From IMG/VR virus record IMGVR_UViG_3300048855_000047, positions 1-46,664 of that record: a stretch of 46,664 nt of DNA; one strand, written 5' to 3'. Below are positions 15,706 to 46,664 of the stretch, piece by piece (within the stretch, counting starts at the first letter, position 1; each line of letters begins with the position of its first letter). Made by a program: the position numbers and the translations under genes. The notes under the pieces are model-generated. The model saw only the letters and a list, made by a program, of their open reading frames with translations. It did no database searches and had not been told where the DNA came from. Source of the DNA: a virus. Lineage: Duplodnaviria; Caudoviricetes.

Positions 15706-16707
15706 ATGGGCCAGATCATCACCCGCGCCCAGTGGGGCGCCCGGTACCGCAACGGGTTCGGCTCCCGCCGCGTCGGCAGCCTGGACAAGTGGCTGCACCA
15801 CTCCGTGACCGCCAGCGCCGGGCCGGGCGCCACGCTGGAGCAGGACGCGGCCACGATCCGCGCCCTGGACTCCATCGGCCAGTCCCGGTTCGGCGGCGGC
15901 ATCTCGTACACGTTCGCCATCACCGAGGCCGGCCGGGTGTTCGAAGGTCACAGCGTGGACCGCATCGGCTCGCACACCAAGAACCGGAACACCGCCAGCG
16001 CGGGCATCGTCCTGGTCGGCAACTACTCCACGAAGGCGCCGACGCCCGCGCAGATCGCGGCCCTGGTGTGGCTACTCCAGTACGGCAAGTCCGTCGGCTG
16101 GTGGCAGGTCGCCGGGCTCAACGGCGGGCACCGCGACGCCGTGCGCGGCACCGAGTGCCCCGGGAACGTCGCCTACTCGATGATCGGCGACATCAACCGG
16201 GCCGCCGGGGGCTCGGCCGTCATCCCCGTGTCCAACGGTGGCGGCACCGCCGCCCCGGGGTTCCACGGCATCCCGGGCGTGCACACGGGGCGGCTCACCG
16301 CCGACGGCAACCTGGAACTCGTCCCCGACGGCCTGCGGTTCGGCGCGACCATCGCCCGCTGGCAGCAGGTCATGGGGTTCACGAAGCCGGACGGCTCCAT
16401 CTCCAAGCCGCAGCGCGGCGTGGACCCGGCGCTGTACCTCATGGGCCGCGACCAGATCTTCCTCAACTCGGTCGTGGACCACGGGCACATCCTGAACCTG
16501 ACCGGTCGGCGGGGTCTGCTCGTGGACGCCGACGAGGGCCCCGCGACCATCAAGGTGCGGCAGTTCTGGCTCTACAACACCTTGGGCCGCGAACTCCTGG
16601 GTCGAGCTCCGCGCGGCTCGGACTTCGACGGCATCGCCGGTGGCGAGACGAACGCCCTGCACCAGCACGCCCTGAACCGCGCCACCGCCGGTTCGCGCCG
16701 GTACTGA
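15706..16707 (+). CDS. endolysin, N-acetylmuramoyl-L-alanine amidase (PGRP-like)
   Basis: IITRAQWGA, LHHS, ISYTF, GSHT, GIVLVGNY and GHRD...TECPG motifs. Confidence 0.9.
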   Translation: MGQIITRAQWGARYRNGFGSRRVGSLDKWLHHSVTASAGPGATLEQDAATIRALDSIGQSRFGGGISYTFAITEAGRVFEGHSVDRIGSHTKNRNTASAGIVLVGNYSTKAPTPAQIAALVWLLQYGKSVGWWQVAGLNGGHRDAVRGTECPGNVAYSMIGDINRAAGGSAVIPVSNGGGTAAPGFHGIPGVHTGRLTADGNLELVPDGLRFGATIARWQQVMGFTKPDGSISKPQRGVDPALYLMGRDQIFLNSVVDHGHILNLTGRRGLLVDADEGPATIKVRQFWLYNTLGRELLGRAPRGSDFDGIAGGETNALHQHALNRATAGSRRY

Positions 16708-22206: not shown

Positions 22207-24030
22207 ATGCCCACCCCCGCCCGCGAGTTCACGCCCCGCCCCCTGACCGGGCTGCCGTCCTGGCCGGTCCTGCTGGAGGCCGGGGTCCCGAAGTCCGGCA
22301 AGACCTACGCCGCCGTGGAGGCCAGCGCCTCCGACCTCATCGGCCGCACGTTCCTCGTCACCCTCGGCGAGACCGAGCCGGACGAGTACGGGCTGATCCC
22401 CGGCCAGCGCGTGGAACTCATCCCGCACGACGGCGGCTACCGCGACGTGCTCGACGCCCTCACGTGGGCCGCCGCGCAGCCATGGCCCGACCCCGACCAC
22501 CCCAACCTGCTGATCTTCGACGGCGCCACCCGCCTGTGGGACCTCCTGACCGACATGGCCCAGGAGGGCACCTATGCGGCGCTGCGGGCCAAGAACTCGC
22601 GCAAGGGCGCCAACACCGCCCCGATGTCCGACGAGCAGAAGATCACGCCCGACCAGTGGAACATCGCCGCGTCCCGCTGGGGCAACGTGATGTCCGTCCT
22701 GCTGAACGACCACCAGGGGCCCAGCATCATCACCGCCCGGCTGGACCTCGTGATGGTCATGGACGCGAACGGCAACCCGACCAAGGAGAAGGCCTGGAAG
22801 GTCCAGGCGCACAAGTCCCTGGTGTTCGACGTAGACGGCATCATCGAACTGCGCGAGCAGGCCATCCCCGGGCAGCCCGCCCCGGCCACCCTGCGCGGCC
22901 TGAAGTCGCTGCGGTTCAAGGGTGAGGCGCAGGACTTCCCCGACGGCCTGCCCATCGACCAGGTGTGGCGCAGCATGGGCCTGCACGAGGGGTTCGGCAC
23001 CCGCGACCACCGCACGCCCGACACCCTGCGGTCCATGGGGCTGGAGGTCGCGAACGACGCGCGCCGCCAGCAGGATCAGGCCGCCGAGGCCCCGCAGGAG
23101 CGTCCCGCCGCCGCGCCGCAGCAGCGCGAGGCGGCCCGGCCCGCCGCTGCGCCCGGCCAGCCCCCGACGCCCACGCGAGCCGCGCAGTCCCTCGCGGACC
23201 GGTGGGAGGGGGCGCAGACCGAGGAAGCCCTGGCCCGCATGTGGCTCGGCGCCGAGCTCTGGATCATGGGCGGAACCGACGGCAGTGGCAAGACCTGGCC
23301 GCCCATGCCCTGGGCCGGGCAGTACGGCAACCTGGAGGCGTTCGCGCACCAGCAGGGCGTGACCTGGCGCGGTCGCCACACCCGCCTCCTGGAGGTGTTC
23401 CAGGGGCGGCGGTTCGAACTGGCGAACATCCCGCCGGAGGGTGACGGCGGGACCCGACCGCAGGAGCCGCAGGAGCCCCGTGGGGACGACGGGGGGCCGT
23501 CCGCGTCCTCCGGTGCCCCCGAGTCGCCGGAGCCGCCGCAGGACGACGCTCCCCCGCCGTGGGGCCCGGACCCGCGCGACGCCGACGTGCCCCCGTACGA
23601 CACGTCGGACCCGTGGGCCACCCCGCAGCACCCGGGCACGGCCGATGAGGCCATGGGCGAGGCGTTCGCGCCGCCCGCCACGCACGAGCAGGCCGTGGCG
23701 ACCGTCCGTGCCGCCTTCCCCGAGGCTGAGCCGGTGGACTCCACCGCCGACCCCGAGACCCCGGCGCAGCGCGTCGCCCGCGAGCACGCCGACGACCTGG
23801 CCGTGAAGCGGGCACAGCGCGAGGAAGCCGCCAAGGAAGCGGCCGAGGACCAGCGCGGCGCCGTCGGCGGGCAGCCCGGCAAGACCCCGCCGCCCGCCAA
23901 GGGCGAGGGGTACGCCGCGTTCCAGAAGGCCAAGGCGGAGGCCGCCGAGGCCGCCGCACGCATCGCAGCCGAGGATCACTCGGCCTCCGCCGGCAAGGTG
24001 TCGGCGAACACGAAGGGACGGACCAAGTGA
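22207..24030 (+). CDS. AAA/RecA-like ATPase (Sak4-like recombination protein) with long C-terminal extension
   Basis: Walker A GVPKSGKT, Walker B LLIFDG; adjacent to SSB. Confidence 0.7.
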
Positions 24031-24527
24031 GCGGAGAGACCACCATCACGGTGGTGGGGAACCTGACGGCAGACCCGGAGTTGCGGTTCACGCCGTCGGG
24101 CGCGGCCGTGGCCAACTTCACGGTGGCCAGCACCCCACGTGCCTACGACAAGGCGACGAACGAGTGGAAGGACCAGGACACGCTGTTCCTGCGCTGCTCG
24201 ATCTGGCGGGAGGCGGCGGAGAACGTCGCCGAGTCGCTCACCAAGGGCACCCGCGTGATCGTCACGGGGCGGCTCGTCCAGCGGTCCTACGAGACCCGCG
24301 AGGGCGAGAAGCGCACCGTGTACGAACTCCAGGTGGACGAGGTGGGCCCGTCGCTGAAGTACGCCAGCGCCAAGGTCACCCGCACGACGAGCGGCGGCGG
24401 CAACCGCCAGTCGTTCGGCAGCAGCAGCGGTGGTGGCTTCACCGGCGGCCCGGCCGCCACCGACGACGCGTGGGCGACGCCCGCCGGTGGCGGTGCGGGG
24501 TCCTACTCCGACGAGCCGCCGTTCTGA
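24027..24527 (+). CDS. ssb: single-stranded DNA-binding protein
   Basis: [32 protein letters not shown]...DEPPF, typical actinobacterial SSB. Confidence 0.96.
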
Positions 24528-24546
24528 CCTGCGGCTAGCCTGGCCC

Positions 24547-24579
24547 GAGGGGCACCCGGTGAGATACCGGGTGCCCCTC
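24547..24579 (+). terminator. 14-bp perfect stem-loop
   Basis: gaggggcacccggt-gagat-accgggtgcccctc. Confidence 0.75.
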
Positions 24580-24580
24580 A

Positions 24581-24610
24581 GTGTGTTACCCCTAGCGCCT
24601 GTGCTACGGT
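24581..24610 (+). promoter_or_regulatory. palindrome-containing promoter P5
   Basis: GTGTGT-18 nt-TACGGT; AGCGCCTGTGCT. Confidence 0.65.
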
Positions 24611-24660
24611 GTGGACATCCGGGGGACCCGCCCCCGCACACCCGCCCAAGGAGCACGACC

Positions 24661-25194
24661 ATGACCAACCCCGAGTCCCCCGGCCGAACGCCGGTGGAGC
24701 AGGCCGCCGAGGAGGTGGCCGCCCTGACCGCCCTGAAGGCTGGCCTGGACGACCAGATCGCCGCCGCCAAGCGCCGGATGATCGACGCCGCAGCTGGCAT
24801 GACGAAGGCCACCGTCGCCACCCCCTACGGCCGGGTGCTGGTCACCCGCTCCGAGGAGCACGTGGAGTACATCCCGGACCGGTTCCTGGAGTGGGTCAAG
24901 GAGCACCACCCCACGGAGGTCATCACCACGGAGTCCGTCAACCCGGCGTTCGCCCGGGCCATGCTGGAGAACCTCACCATCGTGCGCGGCGAGGTCGTGG
25001 ACAAGCGCAGCGGCGAGTTCGTCGCCTACGCCTACCTCACGGACCAGGGCGACCCCTACGTGGCGTATCCCGCCAGCCGCGAGCAGCGCGACGCCAAGGA
25101 GTACGCCCGCATGCTGTTCCAGGACCGGGCGCTCGCCCTGACCAAGGCCCTGCACGAGGTCGCCGCGCTCCCGTCCACGGAGGAGGCGTCATGA
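24661..25194 (+). CDS. hypothetical protein
   Basis: AAGGAG RBS; N-terminal helix then FLEWVKEHHP...VVDKRSGE. Confidence 0.75.
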   Translation: MTNPESPGRTPVEQAAEEVAALTALKAGLDDQIAAAKRRMIDAAAGMTKATVATPYGRVLVTRSEEHVEYIPDRFLEWVKEHHPTEVITTESVNPAFARAMLENLTIVRGEVVDKRSGEFVAYAYLTDQGDPYVAYPASREQRDAKEYARMLFQDRALALTKALHEVAALPSTEEAS

Positions 25195-25814
25195 GCGGGC
25201 GTCGCGACCGCCGGTCCCTGCTCGCCAAGGCGGTGGCGCGGACCGCTGGCACCCCCAGCCTGCCGCTCGCACCCCCGCCGCCGGAGCCCGAGCACGACCG
25301 GGTGCGTCTCCTGGACCTGGCCGAGCGGCTCCAGGCGCTGCGCGACGGCGGATGGGCCCCCTCCGACCTCACGACCACCGAGGTGGACCTCCTGGTGGCG
25401 CTGACCCGGGCGGGAGCCGTCCACGGCTGGCCGGTCGGTGCGGCCGACCGGCTGGGGCAGGCCACCGAGCACGTCCCGACTGCCCGCAGCACCGACCCGA
25501 GCACGTCCCGGGCGGACCTGCGGCGCCCGACGACGCGCAACCAGGAGGGCCGTCTGCTCGTGGCGTTCCTGGACGACCCCGACGGCCTCACGTCGGAGGA
25601 GGCCGCACACCGCGCCGGGCTGGACCCGCGCTCCGAGTTCGCCAAGCGGTGCTCGGTGCTCCAGTCCTCGGGTCTGCTGCGCGTGGCGACCGACGACCAG
25701 GGCCGCGAGCTAACCCGGCCGGGGCGATCCGGGCGCCAGCGGCTGGTGTTCACCCTGACCGCCCCCGGTCGGCTCCTGGCGCGGCACCTGCGGGCCGAGG
25801 GCACCACGGCCTGA
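25191..25814 (+). CDS. winged HTH DNA-binding protein
   Basis: ARSTDPSTS motif, then GLTSEEAA...KRCSVLQSSGLL...RPGRSGRQRLVF. Confidence 0.65.
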   Translation: MSGRRDRRSLLAKAVARTAGTPSLPLAPPPPEPEHDRVRLLDLAERLQALRDGGWAPSDLTTTEVDLLVALTRAGAVHGWPVGAADRLGQATEHVPTARSTDPSTSRADLRRPTTRNQEGRLLVAFLDDPDGLTSEEAAHRAGLDPRSEFAKRCSVLQSSGLLRVATDDQGRELTRPGRSGRQRLVFTLTAPGRLLARHLRAEGTTA

Positions 25815-25840
25815 CCCCCGCGCCACCCCCCAGGCACGAC

Positions 25841-25873
25841 AGAGGGCCCCCACCTACATGGTGGGGGCCCTCT
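25841..25873 (+). terminator. 14-bp perfect stem-loop
   Basis: agagggcccccacc-tacat-ggtgggggccctct. Confidence 0.75.
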
Positions 25874-25973
25874 CGCCCGTCCGCAGTCCCCCGCCCAGGG
25901 TCCCAACGTGACAGTGCACAGCATACGGCAGCGGCCCACGAGGCGGCGACGGCGCGCGGGTGAACCACCAGGC

Positions 25974-26003
25974 TTGTGCATACCCCAGCACAGGTGCTAC
26001 GGT
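25974..26003 (+). promoter_or_regulatory. palindrome-containing promoter P6
   Basis: TTGTGC-18 nt-TACGGT; AGCACAGGTGCT. Confidence 0.75.
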
Positions 26004-26049
26004 GAGGACATGCCTCACAAGGGGGCACCGGAACTGGAGGATCACCACC

Positions 26050-26310
26050 ATGAGCACCACGAAGCCGGCCGTCAGCGTTCAGACCGAGCAGGGTCTCGTG
26101 ACCGCCACTGCCCTCGGCAACTCCGGCTCCGGCCACTACGCGCTGGCCGTGGACGGCGTGCGCGTCGGCGCCCTCATCCGCACCGGCCGCCAGCGCTACC
26201 TGACGCGCCAGGACAACGCCCCCCGCATGCTGATCGCAGGCACCTACAGCGGGTTGCTGGAGCGGGCAGCCGTGGAGGTCGCGCTCGCCAGCCTCTCGTG
26301 GAAGCACTGA
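26050..26310 (+). CDS. hypothetical protein (86 aa)
   Basis: GGAGG RBS before ATG 26050. Confidence 0.7.
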   Translation: MSTTKPAVSVQTEQGLVTATALGNSGSGHYALAVDGVRVGALIRTGRQRYLTRQDNAPRMLIAGTYSGLLERAAVEVALASLSWKH

Positions 26311-26860
26311 GCACCTACGTACCAGGCACCACCACAGCCCGGGGGTCACTGACCTACGGGGCTGGTGGTGTTCGGACCGCAGGTGGTGAGGGTGGGAGGT
26401 GAGGGAGCAGAGAGGACCCGTGCTCACAAGGAGCGCCGGGCCCCCTCCGCTGGACGTACCGCAGGCGGAGCCGGGCGGTGTGGCGTCATCACGTCGAGGA
26501 GCAGCACGAAGGGCTGCCAGGAACGGTCTGCGCGGGATCACTCGGTACCTGCCCGCGCTGCCCCCCACACGTCGTCGTAGTCACCGTGCACCGCCCGGTT
26601 CTGCCTTGACCGGTGCTGCATGAGGGGTCGGGAAAGTGATCCCGCTCTAACCGGGGACGACACCGGGGACTAGCCGGTTCACCCGACACGTTCGGGCGCA
26701 GACGATCACTCGCGAGCGGGTTGGCACACCTCTCGTGGGCCGAGACGCTAGCACCTTGTCGGAGGTCTCCGGTAGCCTCTGGATCGACGGTCACGCGCAG
26801 ACGGCACACCTCGCACCCGTCGTAGGACCCCCGGGATGGCGGAGCCCCCCGGGGGTCCTC
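26311..26860 (+). ncRNA. candidate large structured non-coding RNA or structured replication origin
   Basis: Largest gene-free gap; at least 10 helices including a 20-bp long-range stem with 4 G-U pairs (26463-26482/26587-26606). Confidence 0.55.
26824..26859 (+). terminator. 12-bp perfect stem-loop closing the non-coding region
   Basis: aggacccccggg / cccgggggtcct. Confidence 0.65.
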
Positions 26861-26873
26861 GCACGTCCAGGCC

Positions 26874-26903
26874 ATGTGCCGCGTGTAGCGCAGGTGCTAT
26901 GGT
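26874..26903 (+). promoter_or_regulatory. palindrome-containing promoter P7 (leaderless start at 26910)
   Basis: ATGTGC-18 nt-TATGGT-6 nt-ATG; TAGCGCAGGTGCTA. Confidence 0.7.
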
Positions 26904-26909
26904 GACCAC

Positions 26910-27344
26910 ATGAGCACCCCGACCATCGAGACCCCACTGACCGCCGAGGCGCGTCGTGGTCGGCTCCTGACGGTTGCTGCCGAGCTGACCACCGAACTCG
27001 GGCACCGACCCTCCCACGCCGACCTCGCGCGCCGCTTCAACGTCACCGCCCGCACCATCGGCCGCGACCTGCGCCAGATGGCGGCGGCCGGCAAGTCCGT
27101 TCCGCTCACGCGCGGGGACGCCGACATGAACGCCGCCGCCACGCGCCGCGCGGGCATGCCCGCCGTCATCCGCCAGTGGGCGGCGCAGCACGGCGGACGC
27201 GCCCCCACGCAGGTGGACCTGGCCGACCACTACGGCGTGAGCCGCCGCTCCATCCAGGTGGACCTGGAGGTGCTGGCCTCGGAGGGGCTGGTCACCGTGG
27301 AGCGCAAGGGCCGACACACCGTGTGGGTCGCCGCCACCGACTGA
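26910..27344 (+). CDS. tandem HTH DNA-binding protein
   Basis: PSHADLARRFNVTARTIGRDL and PTQVDLADHYGVSRRSIQVDL. Confidence 0.8.
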   Translation: MSTPTIETPLTAEARRGRLLTVAAELTTELGHRPSHADLARRFNVTARTIGRDLRQMAAAGKSVPLTRGDADMNAAATRRAGMPAVIRQWAAQHGGRAPTQVDLADHYGVSRRSIQVDLEVLASEGLVTVERKGRHTVWVAATD

Positions 27345-27395
27345 CCACACCCCCGCTCCAACCACCCCGCCCAGGACCCCGAGAGGACCACACCC

Positions 27396-27872
27396 ATGCC
27401 CGCCAAGTACGCCGAGGGGACCACCGTCCCCGCCGAACGCTCCCAGGCCGAAATCGGCGAGACCGTCAGGCGCTACGGCGCCCAGGGGTTCATGTTCGGC
27501 TGGGAGGACAGCCACGCCATGATCGCGTTCCGCGTCGGCGAACGGCAGGTCCGGTTCCTGCTGGACCTGCCCGACCCGGCCGCCAAGGAGTTCACGCTCA
27601 CCCCCACCGGCCAGAAGCGCCGCGACCCCGGAGCCGCCTACGACGCCGAGTTGCGCCGCCGCTGGCGCTGCCTGGCCCTGGCCATCAAGGCCAAGTTGGA
27701 GTCGGTCGCCACCGGGATCACCACGTTCGAGGACGAGTTCCTGGCGCACATCGTGCTGCCCGACGGCTCCACCGTCAGCGACCACGTGCACCAGCAGATC
27801 ACCGAGGCGTGGCGCACGGGCGGGCGGATGCCCGGGCTCCTGCCGCAACTCGGGCCGGGTCCCTCGGCATGA
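27396..27872 (+). CDS. hypothetical phage protein
   Basis: GAGGA RBS; clean 158-aa ORF. Confidence 0.75.
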   Translation: MPAKYAEGTTVPAERSQAEIGETVRRYGAQGFMFGWEDSHAMIAFRVGERQVRFLLDLPDPAAKEFTLTPTGQKRRDPGAAYDAELRRRWRCLALAIKAKLESVATGITTFEDEFLAHIVLPDGSTVSDHVHQQITEAWRTGGRMPGLLPQLGPGPSA

Positions 27873-34663: not shown

Positions 34664-34862
34664 GAAGCACGACGCCGCCTTCCACGGCCTCACCCCGAAC
34701 CAGGCGCTCCGCCTGGCCCAGCGCATCATCCGCGCTGAGGCTCGACGCCTGCCCACCGTGGAGGTCGCGTACGGCCAGCAGGGCGAGCACCCCGACGTCC
34801 GAGGCTTGCGCCGGGCCGCCGACCTCATCGAACCGCTCATCGACCCCGGGGAGGAACCGTGA
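34650..34862 (+). CDS. hypothetical protein
   Basis: GGAGG RBS before GTG. Confidence 0.6.
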   Translation: MGASEKHDAAFHGLTPNQALRLAQRIIRAEARRLPTVEVAYGQQGEHPDVRGLRRAADLIEPLIDPGEEP

Positions 34863-42179: not shown

Positions 42180-43774
42180 CGCTCCTCCAGGCCCCGCCTC
42201 CGTCGCTGGACCCCCTGGAGTACGCGGCGCGGGCGTGGGAGCCCCGCCCCCGGGACGAGCGGTTCCCCATGCCCGTGGACCTCGCGCGGGCCGTGGACCC
42301 CACGACCGTGCAGACCCCGGCGCTGGCGCTCATCGACCGCGAACTGGCGGCCGTGGAGCGGGGCGAGACGGACCGGCTCATCATCTCGCTCCCCCCGCAG
42401 GAGGGTAAGTCCACCCGCGTGACCACGGTGGGCGCCCTGTGGTTCCTGCTGCGCAACCCCGACCGACGCGTGGCCGTCGTGTCCTACGGGCAGGAGCTCG
42501 CCGACGAGTTCGGCCGGAACATCCGCAACTTCCTGGCCGTGAACGACGGCGAGGACGGCGGCCTGGACCTCGGGCTGCGGATCGCCCGGGATAACGGGTC
42601 GATCCGCAAGTGGCAGGTGCAGGGCCGTCGCGGCGGCGTGCGCTCCGTCGGTCTGCTCGGTGGCCTGACGGGCCGCGCCGTGGACGCGCTGTTCATCGAT
42701 GACCCCATCTCCAACATGGAGCAGGCGCTGTCGCAGACGTACCGCGACCGGGCGTGGCGGTTCTGGCAGGGCGTCGCCGGTACCCGCCTGGCGCCTGGTG
42801 CGCCCGTCGTGCTGATCCTGACTCGCTGGCACCATGACGACCTCGCGGGCCGCCTGCTGGCCGCCGAGGACGGTGACCGGTGGCGCGTCGTGAACATCCC
42901 GGCGCAGGCCCGGCACGACCCCGCCAAGGGTGAGACGGACCCCCTGGGCCGTGAGCCCGGGGAGTGGCTGCGGTCCGCCCGCGAGTACCGGGACCCGGTG
43001 ACGGGCCTCATGCGCCCCCGCTCCGACGCGGAGTGGGAGGCCATCCGGCGCCAGGTCGGGCCCACGGTGTTCCAGGCGCTGTACCAGGGCGACCCGTCCC
43101 CCGAGGACGGGGACGTGTTCCCCTCGGAGTGGGCGCGGTACACCGAGCCGCTGTGGGTGGAGCAGCACGACGGCTCCCGGTGGGTCCTGGACGAGGACCA
43201 GACGGTGGAGGTCGTGCAGTCCTGGGACATGGCGTTCAAGGATACGAAGGCCAGCGACTACGTGGTGGGGCAGGTGTGGGCCCGCATCGGCAACAAGGCG
43301 TACCTCCTGGACCAGGTGCGCGGCCGGTGGGGGTTCACCGAGACGTGCCGTCAGCTAGTCGCCCTGTCGAGGAAGTGGCCGCAGGCTACGGCCAAGTTCG
43401 TGGAGGACAAGGCGAACGGCCCGGCCGTGATGAACGCCCTCCAGCGGACCATCATCGGGATGATCCCGGTGGAGCCGGAGGGGTCGAAGATGGCCCGCGC
43501 GCAGGCGGTGTCGCCCCTGGCGCACTCGGGGAACATCGTGCTGCCGACGTCGGACCCGGACTCTCCGATGCGGGCGGAGGTGACGTTCGTGGACGACCTG
43601 ACGCTGGAGGCGTCGCAGTTCCCGAACGGCACGCACGACGACCAGGTGGACACCATGTCGCAGGCCGTGAACCGGCTGCTGCTCATGCCGACGCTGGACG
43701 GCGAGGTGCTCGGGCAGGAGGACCTGCTGGACCTCGGCGAGGACCCAACGGGGTATGCCGGCGGGTACGAGTGA
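42176..43774 (+). CDS. terL: terminase large subunit
   Basis: Walker A PPQEGKST, Walker B FIDDP, TRWHHDDL, nuclease SWD...EDKANG...HDDQVD. Confidence 0.93.
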   Translation: MTLLQAPPPSLDPLEYAARAWEPRPRDERFPMPVDLARAVDPTTVQTPALALIDRELAAVERGETDRLIISLPPQEGKSTRVTTVGALWFLLRNPDRRVAVVSYGQELADEFGRNIRNFLAVNDGEDGGLDLGLRIARDNGSIRKWQVQGRRGGVRSVGLLGGLTGRAVDALFIDDPISNMEQALSQTYRDRAWRFWQGVAGTRLAPGAPVVLILTRWHHDDLAGRLLAAEDGDRWRVVNIPAQARHDPAKGETDPLGREPGEWLRSAREYRDPVTGLMRPRSDAEWEAIRRQVGPTVFQALYQGDPSPEDGDVFPSEWARYTEPLWVEQHDGSRWVLDEDQTVEVVQSWDMAFKDTKASDYVVGQVWARIGNKAYLLDQVRGRWGFTETCRQLVALSRKWPQATAKFVEDKANGPAVMNALQRTIIGMIPVEPEGSKMARAQAVSPLAHSGNIVLPTSDPDSPMRAEVTFVDDLTLEASQFPNGTHDDQVDTMSQAVNRLLLMPTLDGEVLGQEDLLDLGEDPTGYAGGYE

Positions 43775-43785
43775 CCCCGCCGGGG

Positions 43786-43815
43786 TTGTGCCCACCCCAG
43801 CACGGGTGCTACGGT
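43786..43815 (+). promoter_or_regulatory. palindrome-containing promoter P15
   Basis: TTGTGC-18 nt-TACGGT; nearly identical to P11. Confidence 0.75.
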
Positions 43816-43866
43816 AACGACATCAGCACCGCACGCCCCGCCCGCCCCAGCAAGGAGACCCCGACC

Positions 43867-44478
43867 ATGAAGTCCAGCGACATCACCCCCGGCGTCGAGT
43901 ACGCCACCAGCAGCAGCAACGACTGGCAGAACTACCCCGCCGGTGGCGGCGGCTACCGAGCCACCACCCGCGTCCGGGTCCTCGCCACCGGCTACGAGCA
44001 GGAGACGACCACCGGGTGGGGCTACGGGAGGCACGACCGGGACGAGAAGCGCCGCGTCGAGACCATCGGCGGCGTCGAGGTCAGCGTCTACGCCCGGCCG
44101 CGCACGAAGGCGTACCAGAACCCGGCCGGGGTCCTCGTCATCGCCCTGGACGCCACCACCGGCGAGCCGACCACGCTCACGGGCGGCAAGCCCCGTGCCT
44201 ACGTCGTGCGGCCCCAGGAGGTCCGCACCGAGTGGACCGAGGCCGTCCGGGTCATCGAGCAGCGGGCCGCCGCCCGGGACGAGGCCCTGCGCAAGCGCCG
44301 CGAGATGGCCACGGACCGCTTCCGTCGGCACGAGACCCTCGTCCACCACCTGACCGACCTCCTGGGCAGCGACCAGGCGGCGCGGGTCCGGTACATCACG
44401 GACTCCGACTCCGTGCGCGTCCCCTACGAGGTCATGGACGCCCTGCTCGCCCGCACCACCGTCGCCCAGGGCTCCTGA
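43867..44478 (+). CDS. hypothetical protein (moron-like, own promoter and terminator)
   Basis: AAGGAG RBS; MKSSDITPGVEYA. Confidence 0.75.
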   Translation: MKSSDITPGVEYATSSSNDWQNYPAGGGGYRATTRVRVLATGYEQETTTGWGYGRHDRDEKRRVETIGGVEVSVYARPRTKAYQNPAGVLVIALDATTGEPTTLTGGKPRAYVVRPQEVRTEWTEAVRVIEQRAAARDEALRKRREMATDRFRRHETLVHHLTDLLGSDQAARVRYITDSDSVRVPYEVMDALLARTTVAQGS

Positions 44479-45435: not shown

Positions 45436-45456
45436 CAGGGCCGCCGGGGTCCCGTC

Positions 45457-45475
45457 TGGCATGATCGGGCCCATG
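45457..45475 (+). promoter_or_regulatory. class-2 motif TGGCATGAT-N7-ATG before portal
   Basis: No SD before ATG 45473; same spacing as 1804-1822. Confidence 0.5.
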
Positions 45476-46664
45476 GGAATCCTGGGGTTCGGTCGGGCCA
45501 GCGAGGCAGAGACCGTCACGCGAGCCGAGTACGACTCCCTGGCCGGCGTGGCCGACGTCATGCGCGAGTCCATCGCGGACCTGGAGCTCGCACTGGAGGA
45601 TCGCGGTTGGGAGTCCATCGACCGCGAGGGTGGCAAGGCGTTCACCCGCGAGGGGCTGCACAAGATCAGCACCCGGTGCCGCACGTACGCCGTCGCGAAC
45701 CCCCTGGTGAAGCGAGGCCTCGCGATCCGCGCCGGGTTCATCTTCGGGCAGGGCGTCACCGTCAACGCCACCGCGAACGGCAAGCCCGAGGCCGACGGCA
45801 CCACGTACCAGAACGTGGACGCCGTGATCCGCGCCGTGTGGGACGACCGCGCGAACCAGCGGTCCGTGTTCTCCCTCCAGGCCCTGGAGCGGCTGGAGCG
45901 TTCGCACGGCACCGACGGCGGCGTGTTCCTGGCCCTGTGGACCTCCCCCCTCACGGGGTTCGTGCGTCCCCGGTCCGTCCCGTTCGATGAGGTGCGGGAC
46001 ATCATCACGAACCCCGAGGACCGCGAGGACCCGTGGTACTACCTGCGCGAGTACGACGTGCGGACCGTGGACACCGCCGGGAAGGTCGGCAGCCGCAAGG
46101 AGTGGGTGGCGCACCCCGCCGAGGGGTTCCGCCCCCGCCAGCGGCCGGACTTCCTGCTGAACCTGCCGGGCCTGCCCGGCGAGGTGCCGATCCTGTGGGA
46201 CGCACCGATGATCCACACCAAGGTGAACGCCCTGGACGGGTGGAAGTTCGGCATCGGTGACGCCTACGCGGCCTTGCCGTGGGCCCGCATGGACCGCGAC
46301 TACCTGCGGAACTGGTCGGTCGTCATGGAGTCCCTGGCGCAGTTCACGTGGCAGGCCACCCCGAAGGGGCAGGCGTCCGCGAAGAAGTCCCAGGCGCTGC
46401 GCGCGGCCATGTCCCGGGTGAAGGGCCCCCAGGTCGGGACCCTCGGGGAGGACATCCCCGGCGCCCCCGGGCAGGCGAACCCCGCCAGCGTCGGCGCGAC
46501 CGCGCAGGGGTTCGACCTGACCGCCATCCCGAAGTCCGGGGCGACCATCGACGCGAACGCCTCCAAGCCGTTCAAGTCGTACGTGGCGTCCGCGCTCGGG
46601 GTGCCCGTGACGCAACTCACCGGTGACCCGGGCACGACCGGCGCCCGCGCGGTCGCCGAGACCC
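45473..46664 (+). CDS. portal protein, N-terminal part (runs off the end and continues at 1..582)
   Basis: Translated by hand: MGILGFG...LEDRGW...NPLVKRGL...FGQGV...IITNPEDRE; in frame with 1..582; absent from the ORF track because it has no stop in the window. Confidence 0.85.
   Translation, partial: MGILGFGRASEAETVTRAEYDSLAGVADVMRESIADLELALEDRGWESIDREGGKAFTREGLHKISTRCRTYAVANPLVKRGLAIRAGFIFGQGVTVNATANGKPEADGTTYQNVDAVIRAVWDDRANQRSVFSLQALERLERSHGTDGGVFLALWTSPLTGFVRPRSVPFDEVRDIITNPEDREDPWYYLREYDVRTVDTAGKVGSRKEWVAHPAEGFRPRQRPDFLLNLPGLPGEVPILWDAPMIHTKVNALDGWKFGIGDAYAALPWARMDRDYLRNWSVVMESLAQFTWQATPKGQASAKKSQALRAAMSRVKGPQVGTLGEDIPGAPGQANPASVGATAQGFDLTAIPKSGATIDANASKPFKSYVASALGVPVTQLTGDPGTTGARAVAET
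46538..46664 (+). repeat. 127-nt direct terminal overlap (copy 2)
   Basis: Identical to 1-127. Confidence 0.95.

Follow-up and report, generated by a model that had tools for sequence, protein, structure and literature searches.

A predicted pseudoknotted RNA related to cluster A prophage origins as the probable replication origin of an actinophage without recognised replication genes

The DNA analysed here (the window, 46,664 nucleotides, IMG/VR record IMGVR_UViG_3300048855_000047) holds in its sole large gene-free gap a segment, 26377-26702, which by its sequence is a homologue of the non-RepA, RNA-based prophage origins (oris) of cluster A phages. This element is probably the phage's own origin, from which a leftward, pseudoknotted RNA of 360 nt would prime DNA synthesis by enzymes of the host. 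Since no polymerase, primase, helicase, Rep, integrase or ParA was detectable, the RNA likely serves as an origin in its own right; origin function in the window is carried over, by analogy, from tested homologues. The element bears directly on how replication starts in small actinophages without replication genes.

The window represents an actinophage genome that is complete and circular. The record has direct terminal repeats, 46538-46664 being identical to 1-127, and this exact overlap of 127 nt gives a circle of about 46,537 bp; CheckV estimates the completeness of the record at only 65 %. The G+C content is about 73 %. According to PHROGs and Pfam the genome encodes siphovirus structural proteins, a single-stranded DNA-binding protein (SSB), an AAA_24 protein, a Gam-like protein, a RuvC-like protein and a methylase. 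Close relatives were not found with the HTH or AAA_24 genes as queries, and the best capsid matches reach about 41 %. Among the matching sequence runs listed was one DNA run, a soil metagenome that is possibly the source of the window and showed no variants, and no RNA run. A gene map based on codon bias contains 75 genes, nearly all in one orientation, and confirms the single large gap of the initial annotation, which it extends to 26311-26909 (599 nt). An apparent second gap of 600 nt (45436-46038) is not a gap, as the portal gene, split across the window ends, wraps round the terminal overlap. A protein-coding role of the gap is ruled out: the seven overlapping ORFs lack codon bias (GC3 0.60-0.74 versus about 0.94 for genes), and no conserved coding frame was found. 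The element is surrounded by small genes of unknown function and helix-turn-helix (HTH) genes. One of these, 26910-27344 on the plus strand, encodes a tandem HTH protein with matches to Pfam HTH_11, GntR and Crp_2 over the cut-off, a candidate regulator and not a recognised initiator. GC skew shows no switch at the element; it is slightly negative over the window and confounded by gene orientation. An ARAGORN call of a tRNA-His at 34680-34762 (minus strand) is likely false, as it overlaps with one of the called genes and lacks support from Rfam.

The gap had been described as a unit of 550 nt folding nearly end to end on the plus strand. Its components are indeed present: the 20-bp helix 26463-26482/26587-26606 consists of 16 Watson-Crick and four G-U pairs on the plus strand (two of the latter internal, two at the end), a length of 20 being reached by none of 100 shuffles; the 12-bp stem 26824-26859 is perfect, the remaining hairpins do fold, and the flanking promoter-like sites exist. 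The whole gap also folds better than shuffles (z −3.3 on the plus and −3.7 on the minus strand), but the element 26376-26738 alone does not (z +0.2/−0.3). The left hairpin (z −3.3) accounts for the signal, together with a weak contribution of the right part, so that the thermodynamic z-score was rejected as evidence for an RNA. Dense folding of the element is what 70 % G+C gives, and the case for structure rests on covariation. The conserved part is narrower than 550 nt, comprising about 26377-26702 plus a promoter at 26745-26756, and its conserved structure is a multi-pseudoknot core instead of the minimum-energy helices listed before. Both flanking hairpins lie outside the conserved RNA. The left one (26325-26372), without a match to the family HMM, is likely the terminator of the upstream gene or a single-strand signal. 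The perfect hairpin at 26824-26859 lies between divergent promoters, as a rightward phage promoter motif follows at 26892-26903 (plus strand), and judged from this position it likely stops read-through from the left operon.

Homologues, which the initial annotation had proposed to look for, were found. With blastn, the 62-nt stretch 26640-26702 matches cluster A phages at 77-84 %, and 91 of the 103 matching records are Mycobacterium phages. In EagleEye and Gladiator, the first two inspected, the match lies upstream of parA. In Gladiator it is contained in 24464-25062, a fragment sufficient for plasmid replication according to Tables 3 and 4 of Wetzel et al. (2020, PMC7157519). As far as the sections of that paper drawn on here report, such regions of roughly 600 bp are required for stable prophages and allow a vector to replicate without any phage protein, lytic growth stays normal after deletion of the ori, and phages of this kind occur almost only in cluster A; no RNA structure is given in them. 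A family HMM built from 41 homologues other than the window matches 26376-26702 (327 nt, E=2.7e-20). Furthermore, a covariance model (CM R1) of 33 sequences excluding the window, Alma, LadyBird and RedRock scores 26593-26701 at 84.9 bits, compared with 82.9, 76.9 and 67.3 bits for the tested oris of Alma, LadyBird and RedRock, respectively. The former reading as a functional RNA or origin therefore stands as regards homology to an RNA-based origin, with another strand (most likely the minus strand), narrower boundaries and a different conserved fold.

Viral, genome and metagenome collections were scanned by pattern, and together with individual records this yielded 66 element sequences, or 42 without near-duplicates (window included); Phlei, dropped by the anchor, one truncated copy and several chance matches are left out of this set. 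The element thus occurs in about 40 distinct variants of actinobacterial phages and prophages, namely in cluster A, in Gordonia phage Daredevil (E=1e-74), in Rhodococcus, Nocardia, Corynebacterium and Aeromicrobium genomes and in uncultured phages; Mycobacterium phage Weirdo19 is a further member. It has reached unrelated phages in several genera of actinobacteria, and its settings vary: by HNH and terminase genes, among tail genes, or within integrated islands. In two larger phages (L031 and L083) it sits among the tail genes; the L031 record contains a Prim-Pol, and neither a tyrosine integrase nor ParA was detected there. Some metagenome contigs carry the element twice, in almost identical copies spaced about 14 kb apart (L076/L089, L080/L088, L077/L092), which suggests tandem small prophages. 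L067 is a truncated copy in which a Nocardia core is separated from its left part, and L160 (6908-7024), truncated as well, is an additional, incomplete core in a Corynebacterium genome. The regions before parA in the parABS phages Mulciber (L017) and 40AC (L024) have the right-hand terminator and the parS-proximal part in common with the family and are devoid of its core; oris of the subcluster A11 type likely use a second, unrelated RNA. Chance pattern matches were discarded (L035, L053, L054, L071, L093, L095, L096, L100, L102, L159), as were 13 of the 27 loci of one further scan, from which L114-116, 119, 121, 122, 125, 126, 128-131, 133 and 135 were kept.

The family is not among the catalogued RNAs searched. 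Rfam (ARRPOF, GEBRO, PAGEV, GOLLD, ROOL, introns and others) gave no match for the window, including the gap, at the gathering threshold or at E<=10, and 12 homologous loci matched only tRNAs. Two queries of a plasmid collection returned a single chance match of 42 nt. A group I or II intron was dropped, since the order of the motifs is wrong and Rfam has no match. A host gene was dropped as well: 150 + 150 sampled genomes (phylum, order), with few candidates scored, contained no real match, the one weak match lying in an ORF. Apart from Wetzel et al. (2020), no publication describing the RNA structure or its occurrence outside cluster A was met in the literature covered, outside of which most subscription journals fall. 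Six motif terms do not occur in six of the nine supplementary files of Fremin (2023, PMC10690425), while files 1, 2 and 4 could hold a fragment.

Read on the minus strand from right to left, the family region forms most of a predicted RNA of about 360 nt (26377-26738), supported by the matches of the family HMM and CM R1. Its first conserved hairpin is stem C (26682-26696; sequence and alignment A3), followed by hairpin B (26662-26678; 5 bp, 7-nt loop) with double-sided changes in all five pairs, and by hairpin A (26641-26655; 4 bp), which has a near-invariant 7-nt loop and, in 40 sequences, two covarying and two invariant pairs. The knotted core (26588-26632) consists of three pairings common to 26 non-cluster-A rows: stem E (26588-26593/26611-26616) encloses motif 6 (26594-26610), which in turn pairs with motif 7 (26629-26632) and motif 5 (26520-26524). 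Further to the left are the partner of the hairpin B loop (26578-26582), the motif-4 hairpin (26501-26517) and then motif 5, in the same order as in the homologues, and motif 3 (26462-26482). The latter is the left arm of the 20-bp helix and resembles a motif in cluster A and EE-type elements. The 3' part of the RNA (26377-26451) contains a strong hairpin (26406-26451) and then a pyrimidine-rich tail (79 % purine on the plus strand); a purine-rich tract forms the left edge of all homologues.

The proposed check for covariation turned out positive for the helices as well as for a loop-loop pseudoknot. In a gapless core of 44 columns and 40 sequences, which leaves out two sequences with a longer loop, 99.4 % of 360 cells are paired and seven of nine pairs have double-sided changes. 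None of 500 shuffles and no slid control comes close; the sequences are related, so no probability is attached to this comparison. The predicted pseudoknot connects the hairpin B loop (26668-26670) with a loop about 90 nt off (26580-26582), and the two triplets covary. An in-register triplet is found in 34 of 39 rows, as GGC/GCC (27, the form of cluster A), GAC/GTC (3, window included), GGT/ACC (2), TGC/GCA (1) and one wobble; there are only nine distinct loops, and the observed mean was reached in 115 of 5000 shuffles of the partners. Outside cluster A (26 rows), motif 6 pairs with motifs 5 and 7, and compensatory changes accompany these pairings, one of them in the window; in cluster A rows the automatic pick of motif 5 is unreliable. 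The window retains all conserved pairings and has compensatory changes of its own. The 20-bp helix occupies the same bases as three covarying helices and is consequently an alternative fold competing with the knotted core, perhaps a switch sequestering it.

The minus strand is most likely the one transcribed, as judged from the promoter motif, the promoters of homologues, tetraloops, core wobbles and published RNA-seq of homologues. A phage promoter motif, RGGTGCTANNGT, is present in four copies in the window where 0.06 are expected: three on the plus strand at gene starts and one on the minus strand at 26756-26745, facing the element. One copy (43804-43815) falls inside the longest ORF at its locus, 43771-44478, and that gene probably starts at a later ATG. 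The copy at 26745-26756 is the predicted extended −10 box of the ori RNA, with a predicted start near 26738, and makes a leftward promoter likelier than the upstream rightward one assumed before. Three gut-type homologues (L099, L105, L107) have canonical TTGACA/TATAGT promoters at the same place and in the same direction. For Alma and LadyBird, a non-coding RNA in reverse direction is reported from RNA-seq in the part of Wetzel et al. (2020, PMC7157519) considered. Hairpins capped by GNRA or UUCG number 21 on the minus versus eight on the plus strand in 51 sequences, and core wobbles seven versus one. Wobble counts and alifold energies over whole alignments are even between the strands. A strict leftward promoter pattern is present in 11 of 35 rows overall and absent from 14 cluster A and Daredevil rows, and a scan of 25500-27500 for sigma-70 and terminator consensus sequences gave nothing; the promoters of this phage have a weak −35.

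Plus-strand selection, as initially proposed, would mean a functional RNA folding into the 20-bp helix. Its 20 contiguous pairs, beyond the reach of the shuffles, and terminal G-T pairs favouring the plus strand in nine of 26 rows speak for such an RNA, and read-through from a promoter at 25992 would span the gap. However, the helix takes the bases of three covarying helices and is not the covarying structure, promoter, tetraloops and published RNA-seq point to the minus strand, and the hairpin 26406-26451 reaches −34.8 kcal/mol on the minus compared with −24.2 kcal/mol on the plus strand; this explanation is extremely improbable. A plus-strand transcript could act as an antisense regulator. 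Quite unlikely, too, is that the structure works as single-stranded DNA, a single-strand origin that transcription opens and for which host primase or RNA polymerase supplies the primer, with the RNA as a by-product. The core stems are almost purely Watson-Crick (seven G-U cells in 360), and such motifs can act as DNA, as stated in the part of Weinberg et al. (2017, PMC5737381) used here, but GNRA and UUCG loops, several pseudoknots, dedicated promoters and a stable RNA in homologues fit an RNA.

Cluster A and Nocardia copies have an additional rightward extended −10 and a terminator at the 5' end of the RNA, located 80-210 nt right of the core in L002, L014-L016, L064 and L073. This unit is a candidate for a short antisense RNA equivalent to RNA I. 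In several cluster A copies the loop of the predicted antisense RNA repeats the pseudoknot loop sequence, and the antisense RNA might block the pseudoknot there. In the window, no rightward promoter was found between the core and the leftward promoter. As this small unit is missing, the origin would, in its context, be used lytically and without copy-number control.

The absence of a visible initiator, noted already in the initial annotation, was upheld in so far as PHROGs and Pfam gave no Rep match, no helicase was detected and polymerase A, Prim-Pol, AAA_25, ResIII, tyrosine integrase and ParA had no match in the window; about half of the genes are unannotated and could hide an initiator. 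The 607-aa protein encoded at 22207-24030 has an AAA_24 ATPase at its N terminus and a long tail of low complexity, and it likely has a role in recombination and is not an initiator. All four replication families are missing from 15 of the 19 records with the element that were compared, and four have their own primase, helicase or polymerase. No replication genes were found in complete element-bearing phages of 14-21 kb, and 134 proteins selected from eight element-bearing records, a set without many of the structural genes, revealed no initiator when compared with PHROGs. As a control, one of three of the replication families is present in 12 of 19 phages without the element. In records of at least 40 kb the tested families are lacking in four of eight with the element versus five of 16 without it, so that absence of replication genes is weak evidence. 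Among 25 phages sharing a 158-aa neighbour gene, the 19 searched whole gave no CM match, and thus no like-for-like swap of origin and initiator is shown.

Alternatively, the origin might maintain an extrachromosomal prophage, lytic replication depending on, for example, an unrecognised initiator encoded by one of the unannotated genes or on recombination by the AAA_24, SSB and RuvC-like proteins. Prophage maintenance is the one function demonstrated for the family in the data taken from Wetzel et al. (2020, PMC7157519), and the window has a recombination set and no integrase. Nevertheless, neither ParA nor an immunity repressor was recognised in the window, nearly all genes point one way, the antisense unit is missing, and in 14 of 22 element-bearing records an integrase is present, which makes a plasmid state unnecessary there. 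We regard this alternative as unlikely. The varied positions of the cassette and the four of 19 carriers with replication proteins of their own would agree with another, trans-acting or regulatory, job of the RNA in this phage or with an inactive passenger cassette. This is very unlikely, as the window copy keeps compensatory changes and an intact promoter and its homologues are proven origins.

In the preferred explanation, the protein-free lytic origin, host RNA polymerase would synthesise the 360-nt minus-strand RNA leftward from the promoter at 26756-26745, and its knotted 5' two-thirds would fold. By analogy to ColE1, the 3' end would stay hybridised to the template near 26377-26450 as an R-loop, RNase H may trim the RNA, DNA polymerase I may extend it with DNA synthesis starting in the tail (26377-26451), and the host restart pathway would load the replisome. 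RNA in R-loops is usually G-rich. The pyrimidine-rich tail of the predicted RNA is the opposite and counts against this explanation.

A distant form exists in phages of Microbacterium cluster EE, which are lytic and lack many non-structural genes according to the part of Jacobs-Sera et al. (2020, PMC7302621) consulted. Kaijohn (L109) has 17.4 kb and 26 genes, none annotated for replication, and its sole large gap (15843-16355, 510 bp) has the purine tract as well as motifs 3, 5, 6 and 7 in common with the element. Of 139 blast records, 135 cover this gap. The main-family HMM does not detect Kaijohn, and the main-family CM gives only sub-threshold matches on EE-type elements. An HMM of nine EE-type elements matches loci of the main family, and does so at the correct position (L084, E=9e-8; L055, E=1e-4); its match to the window is partly circular. 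On these sequence matches, homology of the EE-type elements to the main family is probable. The variant, with a different right-hand domain, was observed at L109 15843-16355 and in L115, L116, L121, L122 and L128-L131, in phages and prophages of 14-27 kb.

Evenly balanced, in our judgement, is a wider proposal: pseudoknotted primer RNAs of a widespread and as yet uncatalogued family would constitute a portable protein-free origin of actinophages. One form, with antisense copy control, would serve plasmid prophages; the other, with a single promoter, would be the sole lytic origin of phages without replication genes, such as this phage and siphoviruses of 14-21 kb (e.g. Microbacterium cluster EE), and the 20-bp helix would be a switch folding only off the template. 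If true, such a two-form family would account for DNA replication in the smallest tailed actinophages. A protein-free replicon of 400 bp would be a compact tool for laboratory actinobacteria. The finding adds a covariation-backed structure and exact bases for mutation.

Among known systems, the plasmid-associated motifs ARRPOF, GEBRO and PAGEV (Weinberg et al. 2017, PMC5737381) are likewise structured, 223-349 nt long and tied to plasmid replication, ARRPOF lying in a rep-independent region, as far as the portion of that paper used here goes; unlike the present element they occur in other phyla, and no Rfam match connects them with it. RNA II of ColE1/pMB1, outlined in the introduction of Wetzel et al. 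(2020, PMC7157519) and accompanied by the antisense RNA I, also stands for a protein-free origin with a long folded transcript from its own promoter (a predicted one here), and the predicted short 5' antisense unit of cluster A and Nocardia copies resembles RNA I. There is no sequence or Rfam match to RNA I or RNA II; the window RNA differs in being about 360 nt long, knotted and pyrimidine-rich in its 3' tail and in having no antisense unit. The closest counterparts are the oris of Gladiator, Alma, LadyBird and RedRock, with homologous sequence and structure, the same order of motifs, an RNA predicted opposite to the neighbouring genes and no Rep protein. In contrast to them, the window has no parABS (no ParA) next to which the element could lie, its phage has an unrelated backbone without polymerase, primase and helicase, the rightward promoter-terminator unit is missing at the RNA 5' end, and the element itself has a diverged motif-4 loop and the extended alternative 20-bp helix. 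Whereas the cluster A oris serve prophages, the copy in the window is likely a lytic origin.
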